Virus record (IMG/VR): IMGVR_UViG_2541047295_000015 | Location: 54,867-118,866 of that record | Length of the DNA: 64,000 nt | Reading direction: 5' to 3' (one strand) | DNA from: a virus | Lineage: Duplodnaviria > Caudoviricetes | Shown here: piece after piece, positions 9,311 to 56,521 of the stretch | Layout: each line of letters starts with the position of its first letter | Numbering within the stretch: position 1 is the stretch's first letter | Translations under genes and position numbers: made by a program | Notes under the pieces: model-generated | The model's database searches: none | What the model saw: only the letters and a program-made list of their open reading frames with translations | What the model was told of the DNA's origin: nothing

Positions 9311-9526
9311 ATGAAAGAACATGAATTAGAGATAAATATCTCAATACCAATTTCTCTAGTTATTCTTTATTTAGCTATAGTCTCTATAGTAATGCTAGGT
9401 ATGTCATCTTTAAATAATTTTGCTAACATATCATCTATACCTGTAAATGCTTTAGGTTCGACAGTTGGATTTGTTATGTTTCAACTTTTAGTTAGTTTTT
9501 TTAAAAATAGAAAATCTATAGATTAA
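9311..9526 (+). CDS. Small two-TM membrane protein
   Basis: RBS AAAGGA, upstream TGnTATAAT, two hydrophobic helices. Confidence 0.6.
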   Translation: MKEHELEINISIPISLVILYLAIVSIVMLGMSSLNNFANISSIPVNALGSTVGFVMFQLLVSFFKNRKSID

Positions 9527-9583
9527 AATATTATTTACATTAAATCTTGTTTTAATATTTTTAATTTGTGGTATAATAAAAGC

Positions 9584-9710
9584 AAGGAAATATATTTTAC
9601 TTAACTTTGAGTGATGTTTCCTTCAACAAATTATTTTGAAGATTTATTTTTCTGGAACTTTATATTAAGTTCCCAACCACTCTTAGCTGCCGACTTTGAG
9701 TGGTTTTTTA
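9584..9710 (+). ncRNA. Cis-antisense antitoxin RNA of the type I TA module
   Basis: TGnTATAAT at 9569-9577. AACCACTC...GAGTGGTT+T-tract terminator at 9675-9709, antisense to the toxin 3' half. Ends are approximate. Confidence 0.7.
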
Positions 9711-9771
9711 ATCTATCATAAATCCAACAAGCGATTAAACCTGCTATAACATTCATCATTAGATTCACCAT
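9631..9771 (-). CDS. Type I toxin-antitoxin toxin (46 aa), C. difficile prophage family
   Basis: RBS GGAGGTG. MVNLMMNVIAGLIACWIYDRLKNHSKSAAKSGWELNIKFQKNKSSK: N-terminal hydrophobic helix, NHS..KSG motif, Lys-rich tail. Confidence 0.85.
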   Translation of the reverse strand: MVNLMMNVIAGLIACWIYDRLKNHSKSAAKSGWELNIKFQKNKSSK

Positions 9772-10009
9772 AAGTTTCACCTCCTTCCTAAAAGAAAGTT
9801 AAGGTGACTTTATGGAAATACCACTCTTAGATTTTCAAATATATTCCTTGCTATATTTATTATATCATAAATATTGGAAATATAAAGTTTCAAATATCAT
9901 CTAAAATCCGACCTTCTGTACGCCATTTTAAGGCTTTATAAAAAGCTCCCTTTATGTTTATAATTGAATTTATATAAAATAAAATATATACATTTACTAA
10001 TAATAATTA

Positions 10010-51154: not shown

Positions 51155-51550
51155 TTATTTAATTGATTTAAGTTTTTCTATATCAGACCAATTTTTAGAT
51201 GTTATAATTTGTGTTGCATTTAAATCTTGTTTAATCTCTGATATATCACCTTGAATATGTAATATATCAAAAGACATTTTGTCATGTTCTGCTTTGCTTA
51301 CATCTGCTTTATGTTCTAGTGCTTTAAGAATTTGAGTATTCTCGTTTAATTGAGATTCTACTATATCAAGTCTGTTGTTAGTTTCAACTTGTCCAGTTTT
51401 TAAGTCTTTAATATCATGTTCCATGCCATCAAGTCTAGTATTAATTCCTTTGATTTCACCTTGTATCCCTTTGATGCTACCTTGCATTTCTTTGATACTG
51501 CCTTGCATTTCTTGTAATAATTCTAGTATCTTATTTTCCATCACGACCAC
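51155..51550 (-). CDS. Coiled-coil protein with 21-bp internal repeats
   Basis: (EMQGSIK)n heptads. C-terminal 'NWSDIEKLK'. Confidence 0.7.
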   Translation of the reverse strand: MVVMENKILELLQEMQGSIKEMQGSIKGIQGEIKGINTRLDGMEHDIKDLKTGQVETNNRLDIVESQLNENTQILKALEHKADVSKAEHDKMSFDILHIQGDISEIKQDLNATQIITSKNWSDIEKLKSIK

Positions 51551-52013: not shown

Positions 52014-52254
52014 TTTATCACTCCTTTTTACTACATATATTATATAATATTTTAAGAATAGTATTTTGTCAAATTTGACAATATTGTAAGAATAAACAAA
52101 TTACTATAAATTAGAATTATATATTTTAGCTTATTTTTCATATTCGATTCTAAAAACTAAATGTATGAACAAGGCGAGTGTATTGGAACGTGCTTAGAAT
52201 GGATTTAAATGGCTTGTACAATATATTGTTGTAATAAAATAGACTAGTTATAAA

Positions 52255-52461
52255 CTAGTCCATTTTTCTATGTGGTTCTAATAATTCATTTGCATTTATA
52301 TCTAAATAATATAGTATTTGTTCTAGTTCCTCTACTGAAAAATCTCTATGACCATTTTCCTTATAAGCATATGCTCTTATGCTCATACCCATTTTAGTAC
52401 TTAATGTTTGTTGAGTATAACCTTTTTGTTCTCTTAACTCTTTTAACTTATTAAGTTTCAT
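52255..52461 (-). CDS. Small XRE HTH protein (cassette 1 regulator)
   Basis: 'KLKELREQKGYTQQ...YKENGHRDF'. Confidence 0.85.
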   Translation of the reverse strand: MKLNKLKELREQKGYTQQTLSTKMGMSIRAYAYKENGHRDFSVEELEQILYYLDINANELLEPHRKMD

Positions 52462-52508
52462 TATATCACCTCTTGTACTTTTAATATTGGGTGTGTTACA
52501 ATATACCT

Positions 52509-52686
52509 ATAATATACTACTTATAAGTATATTGTATCTTGTTATTAGTTATTAATCATGTTCATTAATATGTATAACAAGCCTATAAATGAGATTAAAG
52601 CAAAAACTATTTGTTCAGCCGATTTAATCATCTGAACTACGAGCTTTTCAAGTTGTGCGACCAACTCGATTAGCTCTTTTATTTTG
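52509..52686 (+). ncRNA. Putative cis-antisense RNA, cassette 1
   Basis: TGnTACAAT at 52494-52502. GAGCT...AGCTC+TTTTATTTT terminator-like stem at 52641-52686. Confidence 0.55.
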
Positions 52687-52700
52687 TCTTTGGTTATCAT
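52545..52700 (-). CDS. Small membrane peptide, cassette 1 (51 aa, type I toxin-like)
   Basis: RBS GGGGGTG. MITKDKIKELIELVAQLEKLVVQMIKSAEQIVFALISFIGLLYILMNMINN. Promoter TTGCAT(52786-81)-17-TATAAT(52763-58). Confidence 0.75.
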   Translation of the reverse strand: MITKDKIKELIELVAQLEKLVVQMIKSAEQIVFALISFIGLLYILMNMINN

Positions 52701-52801
52701 TTAAGACACCCCCAATATTAAATTGTATAAGGTAGTGTTAAGTACTACCTTAATTATATTATACTATTATGAGTAAAAATATGCAAGTAAAAAGTTGCTT
52801 A

Positions 52802-53116
52802 TTATTCAAAACCTTTAAGTTCAAGAAGTTCCTTCCAATTATTTATAATTATACTTTCTAAAATAGATAACTTATTATTGAATTTATTTGTATTACTTTC
52901 CATTTTTAATATAGCCGTTTCAACTGATTTCATACTAATACTATCATCTGAATTACTAGTACTTTGAACAAGCTTCAATAAGTCAATTTGATTTACTATT
53001 TTATCTTGATTACTTTTTAATTCAATAATATCCGTACTTATTTTATTTTGTGAAGTTTTAATTTCTTTAATATCAGTTTTTAATTCTTCTAATAAATTGA
53101 TTATACCAGTATCCAT
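52802..53116 (-). CDS. Coiled-coil protein (paralog of 51155..51550)
   Basis: Heptads. C-terminal 'NNWKELLELK'. Confidence 0.65.
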   Translation of the reverse strand: MDTGIINLLEELKTDIKEIKTSQNKISTDIIELKSNQDKIVNQIDLLKLVQSTSNSDDSISMKSVETAILKMESNTNKFNNKLSILESIIINNWKELLELKGFE

Positions 53117-53244
53117 AGTTAACCCTCTTTTCTGTATATTTTAGTTATGTTTTAATATTATAACATGGATTCCTGTGGGTAACTTATACAAAAAAAGAAC
53201 TACTATATGTCAAGTAGTTCTTTAAAATTTATTAAAAATCTATT

Positions 53245-53433
53245 CTAATCAAGTAATTCTAAAGGGTTTATCTCTAAATATTTATATATCTTTTCAAATT
53301 CTTCAATCGTAAATGATGTTTTCCCATTTTCTTTATTCTGATAAGTTCTTTCTTTTATTCCTAACATTTGGCTCATATCATATTGTGTAATTTTCTTAGA
53401 TGTTCTTAAATCTTTTAACTTATTAATTTTCAT
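53245..53433 (-). CDS. Small XRE HTH protein (cassette 2 regulator)
   Basis: 'KLKDLR...TYQNKENGKTSF'. Confidence 0.85.
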   Translation of the reverse strand: MKINKLKDLRTSKKITQYDMSQMLGIKERTYQNKENGKTSFTIEEFEKIYKYLEINPLELLD

Positions 53434-53451
53434 ATTATCACCTCATTAATT

Positions 53452-53553
53452 TTAAAAATAAACAATATAGATTGCTTTTAATGCAAAATATAAGAAGAAT
53501 AATAAGCCTAATACTTTTACTATTTGTACTGTAGTTTTAATGTGTTGATTCAT
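53452..53553 (-). CDS. Hydrophobic peptide, cassette 2 (33 aa)
   Basis: RBS GAGGTG. MNQHIKTTVQIVKVLGLLFFLYFALKAIYIVYF. Confidence 0.6.
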   Translation of the reverse strand: MNQHIKTTVQIVKVLGLLFFLYFALKAIYIVYF

Positions 53554-53600
53554 TAAATCACCTCATTTACTTTTAATATTAGGTGTGTTACAATATATCC

Positions 53601-53785
53601 ATAATAATATTACTATGGATATATTGTAAGATTACTTTACTAAGTTTATTTTAGTATGTAGTTTAGTATAGTAATCCAGCCAAACAAAGAAACTAAGGCA
53701 ATAAATATTGTTTCAAGTGATTTAATCACTTGTACTATGAGCTTTTCAAGTTGGTGACACAACTCGATAAGCTCTTTTATTTTGT
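53601..53785 (+). ncRNA. Putative cis-antisense RNA, cassette 2
   Basis: TTTACT(53566)-17-TACAAT(53589) with TG. GAGCTT...AAGCTC+TTTTATTTT at 53739-53785. Confidence 0.55.
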
Positions 53786-53801
53786 CTTTGGTTAATTTCA
53801 T
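53646..53801 (-). CDS. Small membrane peptide, cassette 2 (51 aa, type I toxin-like)
   Basis: RBS GGGAGGTG. MKLTKDKIKELIELCHQLEKLIVQVIKSLETIFIALVSLFGWITILNYILK. Promoter TTGACT(53888-83)-17-TATAAT(53865-60). Confidence 0.78.
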   Translation of the reverse strand: MKLTKDKIKELIELCHQLEKLIVQVIKSLETIFIALVSLFGWITILNYILK

Positions 53802-53950
53802 TAGGCACACCTCCCTAATATTAAATTGTATAGATAAGATTAATTCTTATCTTAAGTCTATTATAATACACGAAATAAAATTAGTCAATATAAAAATACG
53901 AATTAAGTATAAAAATAGACTAGATTTATTTCAATCTAGTCTATCAATAA

Positions 53951-54151
53951 TTAAAGTTCATTGTCTGTGAACTCATCATATTTTTTAATTGTTATAGTTT
54001 GATTATGTTCATCATATTCAACTACAACAGTCTTGTCGTCTTGAGTTAATCCCATATCACGAACCCACGTAATAGGTAGACTTATCCTTGTATATGTTGA
54101 ACCTGCCCCACCTTTTGCAAATGATATGTTTAATTTTCTTTTATTATCCAT
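53951..54151 (-). CDS. AbrB/MazE/SpoVT-fold DNA-binding protein (cassette 3 regulator)
   Basis: 'GS..TRISLPITWVRDMGLTQDDKTVVV.....ITIKK'. Confidence 0.8.
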   Translation of the reverse strand: MDNKRKLNISFAKGGAGSTYTRISLPITWVRDMGLTQDDKTVVVEYDEHNQTITIKKYDEFTDNEL

Positions 54152-54167
54152 TTTAAAAACTCCTTTA

Positions 54168-54272
54168 TTATTTATTTATTTTAATGAATATATATATAAT
54201 TAATATTAAAAATATAATTTTTATTAATAACTTTGTAATATTTAGAAAAAGCTTTAATATTTTATTTTTCAT
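54168..54272 (-). CDS. Hydrophobic peptide, cassette 3 (34 aa)
   Basis: MKNKILKLFLNITKLLIKIIFLILIIYIFIKINK. Same position as 53452..53553. Weak RBS. Confidence 0.45.
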   Translation of the reverse strand: MKNKILKLFLNITKLLIKIIFLILIIYIFIKINK

Positions 54273-54307
54273 TGTATAATTAGTCACAAAAATGATATAA
54301 TTTAGTT

Positions 54308-54473
54308 ACTAGAAGGTAGGTAGGAACTACCTTCTAGTAAAGTATTAAAATAGATTATTTAATATTGTTATTAATAACCCTATTTTAACAAGAAGTTTAA
54401 TAGTTAAATTAACCATTTTATTAAGCTTCTCGATTAAGTTGTTAAGTTCGTCAAGTTCCTTGACGAACTTTTC
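54308..54473 (+). ncRNA. Putative cis-antisense RNA, cassette 3
   Basis: TGnTATAAT at 54293-54301. 5' hairpin TACTAGAAGGTAG/CTACCTTCTAGTA. AAGTTCGTCAAG/CTTGACGAACTT stem with T-tract at ~54445-54473. Confidence 0.55.
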
Positions 54474-54488
54474 AAGTTTTTGTGACAT
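54345..54488 (-). CDS. Small amphipathic/membrane peptide, cassette 3 (47 aa)
   Basis: RBS GGAGGTG. MSQKLEKFVKELDELNNLIEKLNKMVNLTIKLLVKIGLLITILNNLF. Promoter TTGACT(54538-33)-17-TATAAT(54515-10). Confidence 0.72.
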   Translation of the reverse strand: MSQKLEKFVKELDELNNLIEKLNKMVNLTIKLLVKIGLLITILNNLF

Positions 54489-54777
54489 CTCATCACCTCC
54501 TATAATTATATTATACATAGCATGATGCTATAAGTCAATAGAAAAATGGAAAATAAAGTTAATTTTTTATTTCTTCTTATTATATTTATAATTTCAATCA
54601 TTGTAATATTATAAAAATTCTATTCATTAAAAAATATTGTTTATCATGGTTATTAAAAAGGCTTACCTATCCATAATTAAAAAATTTATAAAGTGACTGA
54701 AAAGGATAATTATAAAAAATAAAACATTCAATTATACAATGCAACAGTATTAGAATATGGCATAATTATATTCTTAA

Positions 54778-54873
54778 CTGACGTATTGCTGACAAAAATA
54801 TGAAAAATATCGTTAAAATCATTGAAAATACTGGGTTTTGTAAAAATAGGCATAGAATAGTTTGTTTTATGCT
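54778..54873. other. att-like recombination site 2
   Basis: CTGAC x2 11 bp apart (54778, 54789), ATTGAAA at +43, core CATAGAA-N7-TTTTATG (54851-54871). Same layout as site 1. Confidence 0.5.
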
Positions 54874-55500: not shown

Positions 55501-55606
55501 CAAAAAATGTCAATTTATAGTTGAATTTTTGTTTATAATTAATTCAAATATTAATTAATTATATGATATAATATAATTAGCAAATATTTACTTAGGAGGA
55601 ATTAAA

Positions 55607-56521
55607 ATGGAAGAAAATTACCAAGTTATAGGGTTAGATATAGGAAGAGGTTATGTAAAAGGATTTAGTAAGTATAATGGTATGGTTAAAGAATGTTTAT
55701 TTAAATCTGTATTTGGTGATGGCAGAAATATAGATTTTGAAAAATATACAGACCCTATATATATAGATTTTGAAAGTGTTAGTTACTTTGTAGGATCTCT
55801 AGCAGAAAAAGAAAGTATAACTCCTATTAGAAATTCTGATGATTCAAAAACATCTTTTACAATGAGAATATTAGTTGCAGCCGCTCTTAATGAAATAGCT
55901 GTAGCCGATGAAGTAAAAATAATGATGGGTGTTCCATATAAATCATTTAGAAAAACTACATTAAAAGAAGTAATAGATACATATAAAGGTAAAACATTTA
56001 AAGTAAAAGATAAAATAAAAGGTGGACACAAAGAAATAAAAATATCTGATATATCAATTTTTAGAGAAGGAGATGCTGCACTATTTCATACATTAGAAGG
56101 AAAAGTAAATGAAGATAAAGCTGTTGGTATGGTTTCTATAGGTTTTAGAAGTACTGAAATGTCTTTCTTTGAAAAAGGTTTTGTATTTAACGATAAACTA
56201 TCTGATACATTAGAAGCTGGAAATCAAGATGCATTAACAATGGTTCAGAAGCAACTAAAGGATAGAGGCATAATAAGAGAACTTAATGAAATAGATAGTT
56301 CTAATGATTATGATGAACTTAAAAAGGTTGCTTATATAATGGCTTCTGAAAGCACTGCTCAAAGAATTGCCTCTAAATGGAAGAACATTGATGAAATGGA
56401 TGTATATGTATCTGGTGGTACTGCATTGCATATGAAATTTGATAATAGATTTAAAGTATCTGAAGATGCTCAAATGGCAACTTCTAAAGGCTTATTTGAA
56501 GTGGGTATCGAACAATTCTAG
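55607..56521 (+). CDS. ParM/StbA actin-like partition ATPase
   Basis: 'GLDIGRGYVK', 'EGDAA', 'SIGFRSTE', 'SGGTA' actin-fold motifs. Confidence 0.9.
   Translation: MEENYQVIGLDIGRGYVKGFSKYNGMVKECLFKSVFGDGRNIDFEKYTDPIYIDFESVSYFVGSLAEKESITPIRNSDDSKTSFTMRILVAAALNEIAVADEVKIMMGVPYKSFRKTTLKEVIDTYKGKTFKVKDKIKGGHKEIKISDISIFREGDAALFHTLEGKVNEDKAVGMVSIGFRSTEMSFFEKGFVFNDKLSDTLEAGNQDALTMVQKQLKDRGIIRELNEIDSSNDYDELKKVAYIMASESTAQRIASKWKNIDEMDVYVSGGTALHMKFDNRFKVSEDAQMATSKGLFEVGIEQF

Follow-up and report, generated by a model that had tools for sequence, protein, structure and literature searches.

We analysed a window of 64,000 nucleotides (nt), covering positions 54,867 to 118,866 of the IMG/VR virus record IMGVR_UViG_2541047295_000015, which sequence comparison identified as a phiCD211-like Clostridioides phage-plasmid. 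Three tandem units on the minus strand of this window diverge from the ParM partition gene (parM) at 55607 and are part of an array of small XRE units within the early/regulatory region. Each unit contains a sigmaA promoter, an open reading frame (ORF) for a small membrane peptide (pepA), a hairpin after that ORF, and a gene for a small XRE or AbrB-like regulator; units 2 and 3 also have a second candidate peptide ORF (pepB). An earlier note on this DNA had proposed that an opposite-strand promoter fires an antisense RNA back through each peptide gene, and all the features that it named were present at, or a few bases from, its coordinates. It had overlooked what appears to be the strongest RNA signal of the locus, a covarying long-range helix predicted to sequester the Shine-Dalgarno sequence (SD) of pepA. 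The features of unit 1 are as follows (aa, amino acids).

52758..52786, minus strand: sigmaA promoter, TTGCAT-17-TATAAT (-35 at 52781-52786, 17-nt spacer, -10 at 52758-52763)
52728..52752, minus strand: hairpin at the 5' end of the mRNA
52707..52722, minus strand: SD and 5' arm of the long-range closing helix
52545..52700, minus strand: pepA1, 51 aa, tail-anchored, phrog_7712
52641..52691, plus strand: in-ORF hairpin (52641-52676) and T-run (52677-52691), predicted antisense terminator
52497..52536, minus strand: 3' hairpin of the sense RNA, with no U-run after it
52480..52496, minus strand: anti-SD, the 3' arm of the closing helix, overlapping the spacer of the putative antisense promoter
52494..52502, plus strand: antisense extended -10 (TGTTACAAT)
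52509..52691, plus strand: predicted antisense RNA 1, ~180 nt
52255..52461, minus strand: XRE1, 68 aa, HTH_3, likely autorepressor of unit 1
52242..52260, strand unspecified: terminator-like hairpin at the end of the unit

Unit 2 has the same plan, with pepB between the peptide gene and the regulator gene.

53860..53888, minus strand: sigmaA promoter, TTGACT-17-TATAAT
53832..53852, minus strand: 5'-terminal hairpin
53808..53825, minus strand: SD and 5' arm of the closing helix
53646..53801, minus strand: pepA2, 51 aa, phrog_7712
53739..53789, plus strand: in-ORF hairpin and T-run, predicted antisense terminator
53589..53628, minus strand: 3' hairpin, with compensatory changes relative to unit 1
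53572..53588, minus strand: anti-SD
53586..53594, plus strand: antisense extended -10
53601..53789, plus strand: antisense RNA 2, ~190 nt, predicted from the -10 motif and the terminator stem
53452..53553, minus strand: pepB2, 33-aa membrane peptide with a strong SD
53245..53433, minus strand: XRE2, 62 aa
53194..53223, strand unspecified: bidirectional terminator-like hairpin at the end of the unit

For the pepA1/2 cassette, the copies of the window were joined by others from IMG/VR, a metagenome, three phage records and a congener genome, and 11 representative copies from about six lineages (65-90% identical) were aligned. The pieces conserved on the sense strand were the promoter (a), an mRNA 5'-terminal hairpin (b), an invariant single-stranded stretch running into the SD (c), an invariant hairpin over codons 9-22 (d), a hairpin of 15 base pairs (bp) after the stop codon (e) and an invariant block of ~30 nt reaching the SD of the next gene (f). 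The stem of the 5'-terminal hairpin varies in sequence by lineage and is perfect in each; its covariation was judged by eye, with MAFFT placing the hairpin one column out of register between lineages. The hairpin after the stop codon, which the earlier note had drawn for every unit, was confirmed in all three (52497-52536, 53589-53628 and 54309-54337), and in the alignment it carries two compensatory pairs and three one-sided changes. All of the one-sided changes give G.U, which pairs in sense RNA alone, indicating that this hairpin was selected as a structure of the sense RNA and not of the antisense RNA or the DNA.

Blocks (c) and (f) are complementary, and RNAalifold paired them unprompted over 12 columns. 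Two of the pairs are compensatory: one is GC in 6 rows but AU in 5, the other UA in 9 rows but CG in 2. Over the whole structure 99.5% of cells were paired, versus 33-42% when the partners were slid by 1-3 columns, and the observed covariation score was reached by no shuffle. In the minimum-energy folds of units 1 and 2 this closing helix encloses the whole pepA ORF, and in unit 1 the pairing extends into the SD itself. The sense RNAs folded much more stably than their shuffles, with z values of -9.6, -9.7 and -8.9 for units 1, 2 and 3, respectively. The SD of the gene after pepA stays unpaired in the folded mRNA. The 3' hairpin has no U-run and is followed by the anti-SD, so the sense transcript must read on to pepB or the XRE gene. 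These RNA structures are predictions, and the compensatory events behind them are modest in number and come from related sequences.

The corresponding features of unit 3 are listed below.

54510..54538, minus strand: sigmaA promoter, with a 15-nt palindrome (54517-54531) in the spacer
54345..54488, minus strand: pepA3, 47 aa
54477..54486, minus strand: 5' arm of the closing helix, codons 2-4
54283..54292, minus strand: 3' arm of the closing helix, abutting the antisense -10
54444..54484, plus strand: in-ORF 12-bp hairpin and T-rich tail, predicted antisense terminator
54309..54337, minus strand: 3' hairpin, which would be a 5' hairpin of the antisense RNA
54293..54301, plus strand: antisense extended -10 (TGATATAAT)
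54168..54272, minus strand: pepB3, a 34-aa hydrophobic ORF without an SD, its reality uncertain
53951..54151, minus strand: AbrB/MazE-like protein, 66 aa, phrog_2329
53914..53945, minus strand: intrinsic terminator at the end of the unit

Here codons 2-4 of pepA3 pair with a 10-nt segment 190 nt downstream that abuts the antisense -10. A relative of unit 3 in the phage-plasmid ES-S-0173-01 keeps both arms and the in-ORF stem, the remaining peptide being 62% identical (z -9.7). In gp32 of phiCD38-2, a 13-nt perfect complement joins codons 3-8 with a segment flanked by the 3' hairpin and the antisense -10. The helices of unit 3, its relative and phiCD38-2 are unrelated in sequence to those of units 1 and 2, and the closing helix thus appears to be a principle rather than one sequence.

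Cassettes of the same kind were seen in other records. ES-S-0173-01 has three more (locus L002, 2090-2690, 2770-3372 and 4150-4821), with peptides unrelated in sequence. In each of these three, the peptide has a basic N-terminus and a membrane segment at its C-terminus; a second hydrophobic ORF follows, then AbrB or XRE. A hairpin after the peptide and an opposite-strand -10 are present in each as well. In phiCD38-2 (locus L030, 1340-1971), gp32 (42 aa), an unannotated 53-aa two-helix ORF and the AbrB-like gp31 lie in the same arrangement between the type I toxin gp33 and parA, and the antisense motif TGTTATAAT is present. A genome of another genus of the family (G101; locus L006, 270-1400) has two tandem cassettes ending in AbrB, one of which consists of a 39-aa pepA homolog, a pepB-like ORF and then AbrB. 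That pepA homolog keeps the in-ORF hairpin, with its inner pairs changed, and the antisense T-run; its cassette has a 17-nt palindrome in the promoter spacer.

On the plus strand, extended -10 motifs start exactly at 52494, 53586 and 54293, where the earlier note had placed them, and the stems with T-runs that it had seen inside the peptide ORFs lie at 52641-52691, 53739-53789 and 54444-54484. The antisense RNAs predicted from these features would be ~175-190 nt long. The whole 64 kilobases (kb) contain 21 plus-strand extended -10 motifs, one of which is the antitoxin promoter of a canonical type I toxin-antitoxin (TA) locus at 9569. The in-ORF stems have plus-strand energies of -14.7 to -16.6 kcal/mol, compared with -12.5 kcal/mol for the terminator of that antitoxin in the same window. 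In units 1 and 2 the in-ORF hairpin is invariant, with a T-run (4+4) on the antisense strand only; read on the plus strand, block (f) and the adjoining hairpin arm form the extended -10 TGTTACAAT with a weak -35. The arm that forms the -10 is invariant in 11/11 rows, and the opposite arm has an A-to-G change in the phiCD211 lineage.

The geometry, namely a tail-anchored peptide, a strong hairpin and then an opposite-strand extended -10 aimed back at the peptide gene, recurs in ~8 diverged or sequence-unrelated cassettes: units 1/2, unit 3 with its relative in ES-S-0173-01, the three further cassettes of ES-S-0173-01, the two of G101, gp32-gp31 of phiCD38-2, and phiCD24-1. The relaxed motif occurs in the window about once per kb on each strand. 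From this background, the rough probability that 8/8 independent cassettes carry it within a 100-nt slot of the correct strand is ~1e-8, an optimistic figure since intergenic DNA is richer in the motif.

The canonical locus lies at ~9560-9790 of the window. Its 46-aa toxin (9631-9771, minus strand) matched NF047374 with E 5e-12 and 46 bits, below the 60-bit cut-off. The plus-strand motif TGGTATAAT at 9569 and a terminator at ~9675-9710 inside the toxin ORF bear out the claim that this known Clostridioides difficile type I TA, at 9.6 kb, has the same antisense geometry. A 71-aa two-helix membrane ORF is located at 9311-9526, just upstream of it.

The ORFs of pepA1, pepA2 and pepA3 are open and have strong SD sequences. 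Their N-termini are amphipathic, and the 17 C-terminal residues reach the hydropathy level of a membrane segment (Kyte-Doolittle (KD) 1.9-2.4). The earlier note had called pepA1 and pepA2 (52545-52700 and 53646-53801) clear paralogs, which agrees with their 60% identity and with their matches to the phrog_7712 profile (function unknown; 4e-12 for pepA1 and 4e-17 for pepA2). It had described pepA3 (54345-54488) as similar in architecture; that similarity held, and homology was not supported. The phrog_7712 profile did not match pepA3, and pepA3 was rejected as a homolog of pepA1/2 (hhalign E 0.028), architecture alone being in common. The second peptide claimed for two units is well founded in unit 2, where pepB2 (53452-53553) has a strong SD and is 62-86% conserved in four other lineages; pepB3 (54168-54272) has no SD and its reality is uncertain.

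In the C-terminal half of pepA, the ratio of nonsynonymous to synonymous change (dN/dS) was 0.2-0.5 with dS of 0.8-2 between diverged lineages; synonymous sites being near saturation, these values indicated that pepA is a real coding sequence. In the N-terminal half, over the hairpin region, dS drops to 0.2-0.6, which would indicate an overlapping constraint at the nucleotide level. The pepA copy at 1501-1653 of locus L005 is a mosaic, with an N-terminal half of the unit 2/phiCD211 type and a C-terminal half of the unit 1 type, suggesting recombination inside the conserved hairpin. Annotation does not invariably miss these peptides; the phiCD211 copy is annotated as a hypothetical protein.

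The NF047374 CD_typeI_toxin model matched none of pepA1-3 and pepB2-3. With this result and the opposite topology of the peptides, the earlier claim of a family distinct from the known C. difficile type I toxins was upheld, and the sequence comparison supported pepA as a family apart from them. Neither PF10779 (XhlA) nor the holin families matched pepA or pepB, weak XhlA/holin-type matches (E 0.03) being limited to neighbouring coiled-coil proteins. Look-alikes of pepA2 in the ESM Atlas scored 0.83 or less and were uninformative.

The near-consensus sigmaA promoters with 17-bp spacers that had been claimed for the three units were found at 52786-52758, 53888-53860 and 54538-54510 on the minus strand, those of units 2 and 3 matching the sigma-70 consensus at 11/12 positions. 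The regulators expected from the earlier note, a small XRE in two units and AbrB in one, were confirmed by domain and profile matches. XRE1 and XRE2 matched HTH_3 (E 1e-10 and 9e-10) and, at 62-68 aa, are essentially a bare helix-turn-helix (HTH) domain; the XREs resemble restriction-modification (R-M) control proteins (E 5e-7). The AbrB/MazE-like protein matched PF04014 with E 8e-4, below the Pfam cut-off, and phrog_2329 with 2e-19. A homolog 50% identical to it, in Fusobacterium phage phiFN37 (OR492271.1, 8786-8944), is annotated as 'toxin SymE', and a C. difficile plasmid record names the phiCD38-2-type AbrB homolog 'PemI'. For the protein of the window, the Pfam scan gave no model match behind the names SymE and PemI. 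A SymE-type toxin was rejected as an identity for it, the Pfam scan having listed no SymE family.

The XREs form four classes, with 36-53% identity between classes, and each class has its own repeats or palindrome in the promoter spacer; the unit 1 promoter, for instance, has direct repeats common to every cassette with the same XRE class. The promoter/operator type tracks the XRE class and not the peptide type. Unit 2 and a cassette of pCD1602_4 have pepA 98% and pepB 86% identical, yet their promoters differ and their XREs belong to different classes and are only 52% identical. AbrB replaces XRE in a homologous cassette of another genus, and AbrB cassettes have a palindrome in the promoter spacer (54517-54531 in unit 3, and likewise in the other-genus cassette and phiCD38-2). 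The regulator is therefore swappable, as the earlier note had proposed. This co-variation of regulator and operator is best read, at the sequence level, as autorepression.

XRE and AbrB/MazE are classic DNA-binding folds of antitoxins, some records annotate the AbrB homolog as PemI, and toxin-first operons with an XRE antitoxin exist, namely HigBA and MqsRA. The cassettes might accordingly be type II-like TA operons with the toxin gene first, in which the XRE or AbrB/MazE-like protein neutralises the peptide and represses the operon. The XREs are, however, too close to a bare HTH to favour this, and peptides 98% identical occur with XREs of 52% identity and, in another genus, with AbrB. Because the same peptide pairs with different regulators, a specific fit between peptide and regulator protein is disfavoured, and we regard a type II-like system as highly improbable.

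An anti-defence operon of the acr-aca type, in which a promoter and operator drive small effectors that are shut off by a terminal Aca-like HTH protein, would also place a small regulator last. The order of promoter, small ORFs, small HTH gene and terminator fits such operons, as does the co-variation of operator and regulator (PMC10732046). The upstream products here are membrane-anchored peptides and not soluble proteins, however, SD sequestration and an antisense promoter are foreign to acr operons, and PADLOC and Pfam gave no match for the peptides. We consider this origin very improbable.

Taken together, we put the probability at about 0.5 that the units are type I TA-like addiction or abortive-defence modules of the phage-plasmid, held shut by three locks: an autorepressor, a fold-back of the mRNA and an antisense RNA. 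Each unit would be a self-repressed mini-operon for a small tail-anchored membrane peptide. In the first lock, suggested by the co-variation, the terminal XRE or AbrB-like protein would repress its own sigmaA promoter via a regulator-specific operator. In the second, predicted in silico and consistent with the compensatory changes, the segment behind the 3' hairpin would pair with the ribosome-binding region of pepA; the full-length mRNA would be compact, probably long-lived and translationally shut, and the SD of the regulator gene would be free. In the third, to which the conserved motifs point, the opposite-strand extended -10, beside or overlapping the anti-SD, would produce an antisense RNA of ~180 nt that covers nearly the whole pepA ORF and ends at the hairpin over the N-terminal codons and its T-run. 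Upon loss of the element or shut-off of transcription, the repressor and the antisense RNA would decay, processing of the stable mRNA would free the SD, and the peptide, together with peptide B where present, would damage the membrane.

Type I TA systems characteristically hide the SD by 5'-3' pairing and combine a stable toxin mRNA with an antisense RNA that is labile (PMC5416894, PMC6563280). The units resemble such systems in having a membrane peptide of <60 aa with its own SD and a structured mRNA that is predicted in silico to be stable and closed, with the SD sequestered. An opposing RNA gene is predicted from promoter and terminator motifs that are conserved and recurrent. They are also multi-copy, reside on a plasmid-like element and lie beside partition genes.

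Several findings weigh against this interpretation. Type I TA loci normally stand alone, without a co-transcribed regulator; each unit here has a dedicated XRE or AbrB gene that is co-oriented with pepA, and no terminator follows the 3' hairpin. The topology of pepA is the reverse of that of the known C. difficile type I toxins, and pepA and pepB match no toxin family (Pfam, NF047374 and PADLOC). The in-ORF hairpin is stabler on the sense strand (-18.1 versus -14.7 kcal/mol), and it contains a G.U pair that would be mismatched in antisense RNA. For units 1 and 2, sense pairing, as hairpin arm and anti-SD, can fully account for the block that holds the antisense promoter; since that block doubles as the 3' arm of the closing helix, its conservation alone is no proof of a promoter. 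On these likenesses and differences, the cassettes are filed as type I TA-like, outside the known C. difficile toxin family and departing from the stand-alone definition.

The last points raise the explanation that only the sense mRNA structure is functional and that the antisense features are by-products, look-alikes from AT-rich sequence and palindromic hairpins. The -10 of units 1 and 2 is indeed the complement of a hairpin arm, its spacer is the anti-SD, and the G.U pairs favour the sense strand. Yet an extended -10 stands at the same relative place in the ~8 diverged cassettes, although these have no sequence relation in their hairpins or closing helices, and the T-run after the in-ORF stem is always on the antisense strand only. 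The hairpin arm that is invariant is, moreover, the one forming the antisense -10. This invariance and the recurrence of the geometry in sequence-unrelated cassettes tip the balance to an antisense promoter, and the by-product explanation appears improbable to us. Our estimates for the different readings are not meant to sum to 1; the by-product explanation concerns one lock and overlaps the others.

Alternatively, the units may be regulated moron or exclusion cassettes for non-lethal membrane effectors, serving superinfection exclusion, modulation of host membrane proteins or lysis-lysogeny timing, in which the RNA fold and any antisense transcription merely tune the dosage of the peptide relative to the regulator. 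The location in a small-XRE array of the early/regulatory region is consistent with this, as are the variable number of cassettes (1 to 6 or more per phage) and a peptide topology unlike that of known type I toxins. With the SD of the regulator gene free in the folded mRNA, the operon could even exist mainly for the regulator. Three independent layers of repression on one 50-aa peptide, found also in sequence-unrelated cassettes, are instead typical of harmful products; by analogy, tight multi-level control is usually how bacteria handle a harmful peptide. In two unrelated types of phage-plasmid the cassettes adjoin partition genes, which suggests that they serve maintenance, and neither profile nor PADLOC searches found similarity of pepA or pepB to any known exclusion protein. 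We judge a moron or exclusion function unlikely.

Returning to the type I TA-like reading, the closest known systems are the type I TAs of C. difficile prophages (CD2517.1-RCd8, CD0977.1-RCd11 and relatives; NF047374), one copy of which is the locus at ~9560-9790, and which likewise encode a small membrane peptide on a phage or plasmid in several copies. They have the antisense arrangement that is predicted for the cassettes: a convergent gene with its extended -10 shortly beyond the toxin stop codon and its terminator within the ORF. Such phage-borne TAs stabilise plasmids, a proven role in the maintenance of mobile elements, and their toxins have an N-terminal hydrophobic helix and a Lys-rich C-terminal tail (PMC7699646). 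In contrast, pepA1-3 have an amphipathic charged N-terminal helix and a C-terminal membrane segment and show no sequence relation to them. The cassettes also differ in their co-oriented second peptide and DNA-binding regulator, with no intervening terminator, and in an SD predicted to be locked by a long-range helix.

The toxin mRNAs of hok/sok (plasmid R1) and aapA1/IsoA1 (Helicobacter pylori) are, at full length, translationally inert and compact, their 3' segment being paired to the 5' initiation region; activation needs 3' processing, and the antisense RNA is labile (PMC5416894). The predicted mRNA of the cassettes is similar in this respect. Those systems belong to different phyla and have unrelated peptides. 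In the cassettes, by comparison, the 3' arm lies within a polycistronic transcript before the next SD and not at the 3' end of the mRNA, and the antisense RNA would cover the ORF and not the 5' leader. In yonT-yoyJ/SR6 of the Bacillus subtilis prophage SPbeta, a type I toxin is encoded first in a polycistronic mRNA, followed by a second, weaker toxin peptide, and one antisense RNA between both toxin genes overlaps the 3' end of the toxin gene and the 5' end of the second gene (PMC5848175). It gives a prophage precedent for a polycistronic type I locus with two peptides. That operon has no regulator gene, and its peptides are unrelated to those described here.

Operons of acr-aca and C-protein-controlled R-M systems share the strong promoter with its operator and the small terminal HTH autoregulator that swaps together with the operator, and differ in lacking the membrane peptides and RNA-level locks of the cassettes. 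In tisB/istR-1 of E. coli, a type I toxin with an inert primary transcript is controlled by the LexA repressor and an RNA antitoxin. It thus resembles the cassettes in combining a protein repressor and an RNA antitoxin on one toxin; its repressor is a global regulator of the host, not encoded by the cassette, and its antitoxin is divergent and does not overlap the ORF.

Four features set the cassettes apart from the type I systems: the peptide family with its reversed topology, the self-encoded and exchangeable repressor, the tandem repetition, and a closing helix whose 3' arm lies within the operon and shares its DNA with the putative antisense promoter. We found no published description of this cassette class in the literature. 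As a more tentative proposal, the cassettes may constitute an undescribed hybrid class of TA in phage-plasmids of Clostridioides and relatives, with three independent locks (a swappable XRE/AbrB repressor, a fold-back and a cis-antisense RNA) in ~0.6-0.9 kb on a tail-anchored membrane peptide that often has a second peptide beside it. As the antisense promoter would be built into the DNA of the fold-back's 3' arm, sense read-through and antisense initiation would then be physically coupled.

The family is narrow. A word-indexed protein search returned 3 clusters, and 6 matches were found in 1.84 billion protein representatives. Six-frame searches of 112 genomes of the family found the peptide in its own genome, in one congener and as one convincing distant copy (G101) only; within the host genome it is confined to this contig. 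A metagenome scan gave 2 loci, both of the phiCD211 type, and a word-indexed search with the AbrB-like protein gave close relatives only. Matches to the 3.4 kb round the cassettes are confined to large Clostridioides phage-plasmids of the phiCD211/phiCDIF1296T kind, with identities of 95% for pCD1602_4, 91% for ES-S-0173-01 and 80% over parts for phiCD211. The C. difficile plasmid p840101_2 has a single cassette, likewise adjoining ParM/StbA, and the analogous cassette of phiCD38-2 adjoins parA and the published type I toxin gp33. Presence or absence of pepB switches exactly at the start codon behind a conserved SD (52462-52470 and 53434-53442; alignment A2, columns 375-385). The same leader drives either pepB or the XRE gene directly, which places the indel junction within the conserved leader.

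Around the cassettes, a further plus-strand extended -10 (TGATATAAT) occurs at 55564-55572. It precedes the parM start by 35 nt and probably serves as promoter of the partition operon, diverging from unit 3. Two coiled-coil paralogs (phrog_5553, with weakly XhlA-like N-termini) are encoded on the minus strand at 51155-51550 and 52802-53116. One has a mini-XRE gene directly after it; the other, situated between units 2 and 1, is preceded by an extended -10 promoter of its own near 53165. An Rfam scan of the whole window matched no family.

Large phage-plasmids like phiCD211 and phiCD38-2 are common in C. difficile, and the basis of their stability is partly known. Standard annotation misses most of these peptides, and the cassette class is therefore probably under-counted. 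The type I TA repertoire of C. difficile is already in use as a counter-selection tool (PMC7699646). If our reading is correct, a modular family of RNA-controlled membrane peptides beside partition genes would enlarge this repertoire, and the cassettes would offer a compact natural case of one toxic gene under transcriptional, mRNA-fold and antisense control, in which regulator and operator are exchanged as a module.

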